NCBI RefSeq assembly: GCF_003334405.1
Contig: NZ_QOWM01000003.1
DNA from: Escherichia coli
GTDB lineage: Bacteria > Pseudomonadota > Gammaproteobacteria > Enterobacterales > Enterobacteriaceae
Length of the DNA: 64,000 bases
Strand: one strand, 5' to 3'
Below, in pieces: positions 15,780-16,884 of this stretch. Below the pieces are notes generated by a model. The model made no database searches. It saw only the letters and a list, made by a program, of their open reading frames with translations, and had not been told where the DNA came from. A program made the translations under genes and the position numbers. Each line of letters starts with the position of its first letter. Position 1 is the first letter of the stretch.

Positions 15780-16325
15780 ATGGAAGTCAACAAAAAGCAG
15801 CTGGCTGACATTTTCGGTGCGAGTATCCGTACCATTCAGAACTGGCAGGAACAGGGAATGCCCGTTCTGCGAGGCGGTGGCAAGGGTAATGAGGTGCTTT
15901 ATGATTCTGCCGCCGTCATAAAATGGTATGCCGAAAGGGATGCTGAAATTGAGAACGAAAAGCTGCGCCGGGAAGTTGAAGAACTGCGGCAGGCCAGCGA
16001 GACAGATCTCCAGCCAGGGACTATTGAGTACGAACGCCATCGACTTACGCGTGCGCAGGCCGACGCACAGGAGCTGAAAAATGCCAGAGACTCCGCTGAA
16101 GTGGTGGAAACCGCATTCTGTACTTTCGTGCTGTCGCGGATCGCAGGTGAAATTGCCAGTATTCTCGACGGGATCCCCCTGTCGGTGCAGCGGCGTTTTC
16201 CGGAACTGGAAAACCGACATGTTGATTTCCTGAAACGGGATATCATCAAAGCCATGAACAAAGCAGCCGCGCTGGATGAACTGATAACGGGGCGCACTTT
16301 GACGGTGACCAGAGCGGCACGGTGA
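15780..16325 (+). pseudogene. nohQ: terminase small subunit (Nu1-like), C-terminally truncated/fused
   Basis: N-terminal about 170 aa read as lambda Nu1 (MEVNKKQLADIFGASIRTIQNWQEQGMPVLRGGGKGNEVLYDSAAVIKWYAERD...), then the frame diverges and stops at 16325. No terminase large subunit follows. Confidence 0.75.
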
Positions 16326-16884
16326 ATGGTGTCACGCCGCCAGCAGTTCAGCACCTGACCGCAGAAGTCACCGCAGACAGCGGGGAATACCAGGTGCTGG
16401 CGCGCTGGGACACGCCGAAGGTGGTGAAGGGGGTGAGCTTTATGCTTCGCCTGACCGTGGCAGCGGACGACGGCAGTGAGCGGTTGGTCAGCACGGCCCG
16501 GACGACGGAAACCACATATCGCTTCACGCAGCTGGCGCTGGGAAATTACAGGCTGACAGTCCGGGCGGTAAATGCATGGGGACAGCCGGTGCACATACCC
16601 ATTCGATGACATTTGTTTCAGGTGGTTCCAGTGGTGCTCCGGGAAGTGGATCACCTGATTATTCTAAATACAGTGTTAACACTTCTTCTGCAGGCGCTCA
16701 TACGCACTCTGTATCGGGTACTGCTGCAAGCGCAGGTGCACACGCACATACTGTCGGTATTGGTGCTCATACGCACTCCGTTGCGATTGGTTCACATGGA
16801 CATACCATCACCGTTAACGCTGCTGGTAACGCGGAAAACACCGTCAAAAACATCGCATTTAACTATATTGTGAGGCTTGCATAA
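16322..16884 (+). pseudogene. stfQ: tail-fibre gene remnants (J/Stf-like fragments) in two frames
   Basis: 16322-16609 encodes a fibronectin-like tail fragment; 16576-16884 encodes a side-tail-fibre C-terminus with GAHTHS repeats. The two overlap in different frames and abut the truncated nohQ. Confidence 0.6.

Follow-up and report, generated by a model that had tools for sequence, protein, structure and literature searches.

A probable two-deletion decay scar in a Qin-type cryptic prophage of Escherichia coli and a recurrent one-sided breakpoint near the 3' end of nu1

In a 64-kb stretch of Escherichia coli DNA, which is the whole of the sequence analysed and is called the window here, a gene for a Nu1-like small terminase subunit runs directly into fragments of tail genes. 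A first-pass annotation of this locus had explained the arrangement by one or two deletions that removed the structural region of a lambdoid prophage and left tfa and pin intact. The locus raises the question of how many deletions occurred, between which bases, and whether the bases at which they ended were chosen at random. The features concerned are the following, in window coordinates:

15400-18147: late region of a Qin-type defective lambdoid prophage (cos, nohQ, J', stf', tfa, pin)
15400-15779, plus strand: intact cos region, with the cosN nick position between 15590 and 15591 and then cosB up to the start of nu1
15780-16325, plus strand: nohQ/nohA ORF, 181 aa
16287-16586, plus strand: internal J fragment, 300 bp, corresponding to lambda J nt 17306-17608, residues ~600-701, FN3-like region
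16322-16609: J-derived ORF, 95 aa
16576-16884: stf-derived ORF, 102 aa
16587-16884, plus strand: stf 3' end, last ~100 codons, GAHTHS-repeat C-terminus
16884-17459, plus strand: tfaQ, tail fibre assembly gene, full length, 191 aa
17557-18147, minus strand: pin, serine DNA invertase gene, full length, 196 aa

The cos region looks fully functional when compared with that of lambda. The 191 bp to the left of the nick (15400-15590) are 100% identical to lambda 48312-48502, the lambda right end, whereas the 702 bp to its right, from 15591 through cosN and cosB, are 98% identical to lambda nt 1-703; the letters of cosN can be read in the window as GGTTACG^GGGCGGCGACCT. Since cos has been retained in this cryptic prophage, a lambda-type terminase, either co-resident or brought in by an infecting phage, could cut the chromosome at this point.

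The Nu1 identity previously assigned to nohQ was borne out, as residues 1-170 match phrog_57 (PF07471, Nu1 small terminase family) with E = 1e-72 in a profile search and tblastn gave 98% identity to lambda Nu1 residues 1-171. However, nohQ is not merely a Nu1 N-terminus, since 169 of the 181 Nu1 codons are kept (15780-16286), followed by 12 out-of-frame J codons and a TGA stop. Beyond lambda nt 697-703 nohQ is no longer homologous to nu1, and it has lost the native C-terminus (residues 170-181, which belong to the end that interacts with gpA), whose place is taken by the J codons. That the product is 181 aa long, like lambda Nu1, is a coincidence, and because of it annotation pipelines name nohQ an intact 'DNA-packaging protein'.

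What had been called a tail-protein fragment is part of the central tail fibre or tip attachment protein J. It matches lambda J residues 600-710 in tblastn, is 92% identical to lambda and 93.8% identical to positions 37498-37801 of the complete reference prophage described below, and has no start of its own and a frame different from that of nohQ. It is not a full-length lambda_TipJ (NF049904), as it covers only positions 612-699 of 1163 and scores 157 bits against a cutoff of 1950. The stf remnant shares a 131-bp stretch of 100% identity with intact 1007-codon stf genes of other strains, aligns with positions 42634-42935 of that reference prophage, and matches phrog_295 positions 695-794 of 794 in the profile search and Stf (orf-314) residues 235-314 in tblastn; only the last ~100 of the 1007 codons are present, without the N-terminal tail-fibre domain and shaft. 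The ORFs 15780-16325, 16322-16609 and 16576-16884 occupy three different frames. By contrast with these remnants, tfa and pin are intact as had been claimed, at their annotated full lengths; tfaQ is 95% identical to lambda Tfa residues 1-191 (phrog_105, E = 3e-100), and pin matches the DNA invertase family phrog_125 (E = 2e-69, profile search).

When all lambda structural proteins, of head and tail, were used as tblastn queries against the whole 64-kb window, Nu1 1-171, J 600-710, Stf 235-314 and Tfa 1-191 were the only matches. There was no homologue of A, W, B, C, D, E, FI or FII, nor of Z, U, V, G, H, M, L, K, I or Lom, in agreement with the earlier report that terminase large subunit, portal, capsid and tail shaft genes are absent. 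The prophage remnant cannot build or package a particle, and cos, the truncated Nu1, Tfa and Pin are its only intact-looking parts.

Dozens of complete E. coli genomes contain this 1.4-kb arrangement with 99.9% identity, and in them it is annotated rzpQ-cspI-ynfN-gnsB-ydfO-ynfO-nohA-J'-tail fibre'-tfaQ-pinQ-ydfK, that is, as the Qin cryptic prophage. The Qin of K-12 (nohQ/nohA, stfQ/ydfN, tfaQ, pinQ) is the same prophage, with the same gene order and left context, and likewise has no A through lom. It differs in containing a single junction, between nu1 nt 719 and stf (L010 42031, in the coordinates of the reference introduced next), no J fragment and a longer stf remnant, whereas the window prophage runs from nu1 697 through J to stf 42634 and is flanked on the right by Rac sequence (uspF, ompN, nifJ) instead of ydfJ.

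As intact reference we took the complete Qin of E. coli ATCC 8739 (L010), which lies at the same chromosomal locus, and lambda was also aligned. The late genes of this Qin are nohA, A, W, B, C, D, E, FI, FII, Z (frameshifted), U, V and G, followed by T, H, M, L, K, I, J, lom, a 1007-codon stf, tfaQ and pinQ. The frameshift in tail gene Z (L010 28174-28750) is the only annotated defect of the structural module, so that full function is not certain even for this 'intact' reference. Both references are collinear with the window in gene order, with 98-100% identity in cos/nu1, 92-94% in the J fragment and 93-98% in the stf end and tfa, but they carry the 21.4 kb that are gone from it (A to J residue 600, and J 702 to stf codon 907).

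Comparison with an intact lambdoid genome had been proposed as the way to map the breakpoints and to look for microhomology, and the alignments provided both. The window is collinear with three separate L010 segments, 20011-20903 (cos, nu1), 37498-37801 (J) and 42634-43551 (stf 3' end, tfa), which implies exactly two deletions, the upper of the two numbers first suggested. Relative to the ATCC 8739 Qin they measure ~16.6 kb (nu1 to J) and ~4.8 kb (J to stf), ~21.4 kb in total, and microhomology is present at both junctions:

16283-16292: junction 1, nu1 to J; 9/10 microhomology GATAaCGGGG; ~16.6 kb lost, L010 20898-37501
16583-16586: junction 2, J to stf; microhomology CAGC; ~4.8 kb lost

The order first described, from nohQ through a tail fragment to the stf C-terminus, and its changes of frame were confirmed, but the positions given for those changes, 16322 and 16576-16609, are boundaries of ORFs and not the DNA junctions.

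At junction 1 the core of the product reads GATAACGGGG, the J parent likewise GATAACGGGG and the nu1 parent GATACCGGGG; in wider context nu1 reads CTGATACCGGGG, J GTGGATAACGGGGCG and the product CTGATAACGGGGCG. Comparison of the product with its two parents places the crossover within GATA (16283-16286), inside the 9/10 match. At junction 2 the parents are GGGGACAGC followed by AGGG in J and CTTCAGC followed by CGGTGC in stf, with CAGC in common, and the deletion took the final third of J together with lom and ~907 codons from the start of stf. The locus is very probably a decay scar, left when a Qin-type lambdoid prophage lost ~21.4 kb by two illegitimate deletions at short homologies. Its ancestor would have had a complete lambda-like late region, cos-nu1-A...J-lom-stf-tfa-pin, as ATCC 8739 still has. 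A first deletion, at the 4-nt repeat CAGC, connected J codon ~701 with stf codon ~907; a later one, at the imperfect 10-nt repeat GATA(c/a)CGGGG, connected nu1 codon 169 with J codon ~600.

Three Nu1-J fusion proteins (P0043, P0051 and P0058) join nearly the same two sites as junction 1, as variants that are shifted by one base (CTG joined to GATAACGG) or cross to the right of the mismatch (GATACCGGGG joined to CGCAC). These variants suggest repeated or heteroduplex-type events at the same imperfect 10-nt repeat.

The proposed order of events can be read from the distribution of the two junctions. Junction 2 was found in 91 of 5,426 complete genomes and the identical junction 1 in 52 of them, and junction 2 is common to alleles L002, L003 and L004 and to strain 300709. 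The alleles of P13-6, FDAARGOS_1337, F829 and the window type all have junction 2, and their common flanks are 100% or nearly 100% identical. Allele structures at this locus in other strains are:

P13-6 allele: nu1 and A to lambda nt 956, then L 13434-13575, then J from 16534
FDAARGOS_1337 allele: nu1, then J from 16135
F829 allele: nu1, then J from 16726
AHB21 allele: nu1, then J 17229-17833, then stf
K-12-like allele: nu1 to nt 719, then stf

The J-stf deletion is the older of the two, because it is the more widely spread (91 against 52) and is common to the nested alleles and to the intermediate 300709, and the nu1-side deletions came later and several times within one Qin lineage. The Qin of strain 300709 (L196 9905-20036) is itself at an intermediate stage of decay: besides junction 2 it has small A, W, B, C, G, T, H and J fragments separated by at least five internal deletions, in a 'Swiss-cheese' pattern, and IS3-family and IS66-family insertions around ydfO and ynfO.

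The nu1 breakpoint of junction 1 corresponds to lambda nt 696-699, CTGATA^CC, and this position recurs. In five cases (the window, F829, FDAARGOS_1337, AHB21 and, in PS00260.4, a DLP12-like prophage) nu1 ends at CTGATA (lambda A697), and it is joined there to five different sequences, the bases common to both sides permitting an endpoint range of 696-699. A scan of IMG/VR with the nu1 21-mer GCCGCGCTGGATGAACTGATA, which ends at GATA, followed by a non-native base, returned 13 loci, 11 of them with a nu1 hot-spot junction and among these seven different partners. A metagenome scan added three more junction types, from the only 7 of 43 matches that were true nu1, the remainder being mostly chance 20-mer matches in unrelated organisms. 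Altogether 15 distinct junctions end at nu1 696-699 at the DNA level, and ~25 further ones were derived from Nu1 fusion proteins by mapping their tails onto reference DNA, which would give about 40 distinct junction types, told apart by the partner sequence. A protein search leads to the same place: among the best 120 clusters the last Nu1 residue is 169 in 37 and 170 in 8, while at most two clusters end at any one residue from 145 to 168.

The partners lie in A, B, C, E, FI, Z, V, K, I, J, lom, stf and tfa, and every one that could be mapped is downstream of nu1 and on the same strand. The crossover deduced from the sequences falls nearly always within lambda 691-701, most often at the TA at 696-697, and what the two sides have in common is usually just TA or TACC; with 1-7 nt in common, these junctions resemble short-homology joining. 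Neighbouring control windows, in lambda nt, gave the following counts:

669-682: 0 junctions
683-696: 1 junction, itself one of the hot-spot junctions (CTGAT followed by GCC, joined to gene I)
704-717: 0 junctions
711-724 (two TAs): 1 junction
813-826 (three TAs): 0 junctions

The nu1 site is intact in at least 120 loci, and in all functional phages the nu1-A junction is uninterrupted. Neither an inserted element nor a reciprocal junction, in which foreign sequence is joined to CCGGGGTTGCTGAG...A, was found at the nu1 site, and in IMG/VR other sequence followed by CCGGGGTTGCTGAG occurred only as SNP variants of intact nu1. On this sequence evidence, the nu1 breakpoint of the window appears not to be random, but to be one case of a strongly recurrent, one-sided, sequence-associated breakpoint.

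Other positions in the late region are also reused. Among 115 IMG/VR loci intact at nu1, the commonest next left breakpoint is in gene A (L010 22468-22471), within a site cgGATACCGcg (L010 22465-22474) that has four different right partners and the 7-mer GATACCG in common with the nu1 site, ctGATACCGgg. In stf, a site ggGTAACCGcg (L010 ~42029-42038) is an end in at least four different events (K-12, AHB21, L014 and L094), and either of its sides may be the one retained. The TA at nu1 nt 718-719 (L010 20918-20919) has two partners, the stf of K-12 and J 37375. Junctions from IMG/VR were refined automatically and only clean cases are cited, SNPs having obscured about half of the events. A GATACCG-type site in gene H showed no obvious excess of breakpoints, in what is a weak test; the partial matches there end 20 nt beyond the site, at an apparent mosaic boundary of intact tape-measure genes.

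As a working model, which we put forward tentatively, we infer that a fixed DNA end at GATA^CC(G) is joined to downstream microhomologies. A sequence-determined end, either a break or a stalled 3' end, would form at this point and be joined to any downstream DNA that offers a match of 1-6 nt, so that the left side would always be kept and a variable length of virion genes lost. As the left half of the nu1 site would survive each event, the same point could be used again and the structural region nibbled further. The model would account for the fixed retained side, the deletion-only outcome, the 696-699 spread and the reuse of sites; against it, 16-22 kb is a long distance for simple replication slippage to cover. 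It is possible, but rather doubtful, that a sequence-specific breakage or joining activity at GATA^CCG, at the nu1 3' end and in gene A, together with the related stf site, repeatedly removes virion genes from the cos-proximal side.

An alternative is that the breakpoint is fixed by survival, so that the only deletions to persist are those that keep Nu1 1-169 and remove the gpA-binding tail and the gene A ribosome-binding site and start. A truncated Nu1 at cos might be harmless or protective, and the only TA in a narrow interval would then be the one used. The endpoint does fall between the Nu1 body on one side and the C-terminal 12 residues and the A Shine-Dalgarno (GGGG at 700-703) on the other, truncated Nu1 ORFs are conserved in many genomes, and the distribution of protein endpoints has a right tail (residues 170-173 and 176) and a cliff on the left. 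Yet no endpoint is seen at the DNA level at nt 700-710, where a deletion would likewise take away the start of A and leave an identical or equivalent protein; alleles ending at 719 (K-12) and 956 (P13-6) are viable; and the second hot spot, with GATACCG inside gene A, falls outside any argument from selection on Nu1. For these three reasons selection alone is unlikely to explain the breakpoint.

We consider it improbable that a site-specific enzyme with a 2-bp TA core, for which the candidates would be a nuclease that leaves TA cohesive ends or a serine recombinase such as Pin, encoded nearby, joins a strong GATA^CCG site to weaker TA sites. The commonest sequence common to both sides is indeed exactly TA, with the left base coming from nu1 and the right base from the partner, and pin is 1.3 kb away from the nu1 breakpoint. 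The resemblance of the partner sites to the nu1 site is modest and roughly dyad-symmetric (C.G.TA.C.G); the partners are enriched for this pattern, 17 of 20 scoring at least 2/4 against 38% of background TAs, with G at +4 favoured (p = 0.0005), and the independently found stf hot spot, cgggTAaccg, fits it 4/4. Against such an enzyme, a palindromic TA core should permit inversions, but no inversion product is present among ~45 mapped junctions; none of the 15 best-matching (4/4) TA sites of the region is used as a partner; and several junctions have 1 nt or 4-7 nt in common, for which annealing is the better fit. The 26-bp crossover sites of the hix/gix type are also absent from the nu1 site and from the whole window, where there is no consensus match at three or fewer mismatches and core-motif matches are at chance level, none of them near pin.

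That the junctions are not independent, a single ancestral nu1 truncation having spread by homologous recombination and acquired its partners secondarily, is extremely improbable: the cos-nu1 regions of Qin, of DLP12-like and of other lambdoid prophages share 97-100% identity and recombine readily, as documented for lambda with the cos-nu1 regions of cryptic prophages (PMC3945230), but the sequence to the right of GATA differs in every type, over ~40 different places from A to tfa, and homologous exchange cannot make new partners at a fixed base, being able at most to copy a type between loci.

Several other causes were considered and found no support. When both DNA strands were folded, z-scores of 0.4 to 1.5 gave no significant hairpin or palindrome for the nu1 site; a single inverted repeat is present, 25 nt downstream. 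A reading of the site as a pseudo-cosN nicked by terminase is not supported, as cosN is matched better by 486 to ~10,000 other positions in lambda, according to the window size used; the local likeness is real (nu1 GATACC^GGGG, cosN GTTACG^GGGC), and a post hoc motif, GWWACSGSG, selects cosN, the three hot spots and three other sites, which is circular. An action of Pin on quasi-sites was discarded: hix/gix-like sites are lacking, and a crossover at the central GG in the best local alignment does not match the junctions. The uninterrupted nu1-A of functional phages speaks against insertion of a mobile element or of a homing-endonuclease gene at the site, and TA dinucleotides are not hot in general, windows with two or three other TAs having given 0-1 junctions.

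Two known kinds of deletion resemble the nu1 hot spot in part. Short-homology illegitimate recombination has deletion hot spots, as in the short-repeat deletions of lacI and in lambda bio transducing phages, and as at nu1 the junctions have 1-10 nt in common and a few sites are far overused. At nu1, however, one end is confined to 4 nt and the other is spread over 22 kb; the cos-proximal side is the only one kept, and no flanking palindrome accounts for the fixed end. Int-promoted lambda deletions have one end at att and the other at secondary sites, and so likewise combine a fixed and a variable end, with partners weakly similar to the fixed site; the fixed site here is in nu1 instead of att, the common core is usually 2 nt and not a 7-bp overlap, and no integrase site or element was found at the nu1 hot spot. 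No description of a base-precise nu1 deletion hot spot was found in the literature searched, which is weak negative evidence; the hot spot appears to be undescribed, whereas the scar itself is known biology.

A deletion scar in a cryptic prophage is by itself routine decay and says only that this copy of Qin cannot make particles; it is the recurrent one-sided breakpoint that adds interest to the locus. If prophage decay starts at a few base-precise sites, the content of 'domesticated' remnants would be dictated in part by mechanism, which would bear on the frequent retention of cos, truncated Nu1, lysis genes and tail-fibre ends. An activity at GATA^CCG, if there is one, would amount to a built-in or host-imposed 'grounding' route by which inducible prophages become cos-plus-truncated-Nu1 remnants. 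CTGATA followed by non-nu1 sequence would then be a simple marker for counting independent inactivation events across E. coli genomes.

Two further observations concern the surroundings of the scar. The left side of the window prophage and its nohA-tfa block are Qin, 99.8% identical to FORC 064, and the match to Qin (tfaQ-pinQ-ydfK-ynfT) extends to ~19241, with mismatches clustered in tfa (16881-17200). From 19241 the sequence is the right flank of Rac, with uspF at 19658-20164 (minus strand) and then ompN and nifJ in place of ydfJ, so that the window prophage would be a Qin/Rac hybrid; this suggests a chromosomal inversion by recombination between the tfa-pin blocks that Rac and Qin carry in inverted orientation on the two sides of the terminus. 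In another Qin copy (L191 6001-8254; GCA_053257695.1, JBNDCH010000105.1), an in-frame fusion joins Nu1 residue 169 to the last 116 residues of a tyrosine integrase, followed by an AlpA-family gene, a gene for a 291-aa TIR-domain protein (CAP12-PCTIR_TIR) and then J'. This integrase-alpA-TIR cassette in the tail region of a cryptic prophage is probably anti-phage defence cargo.
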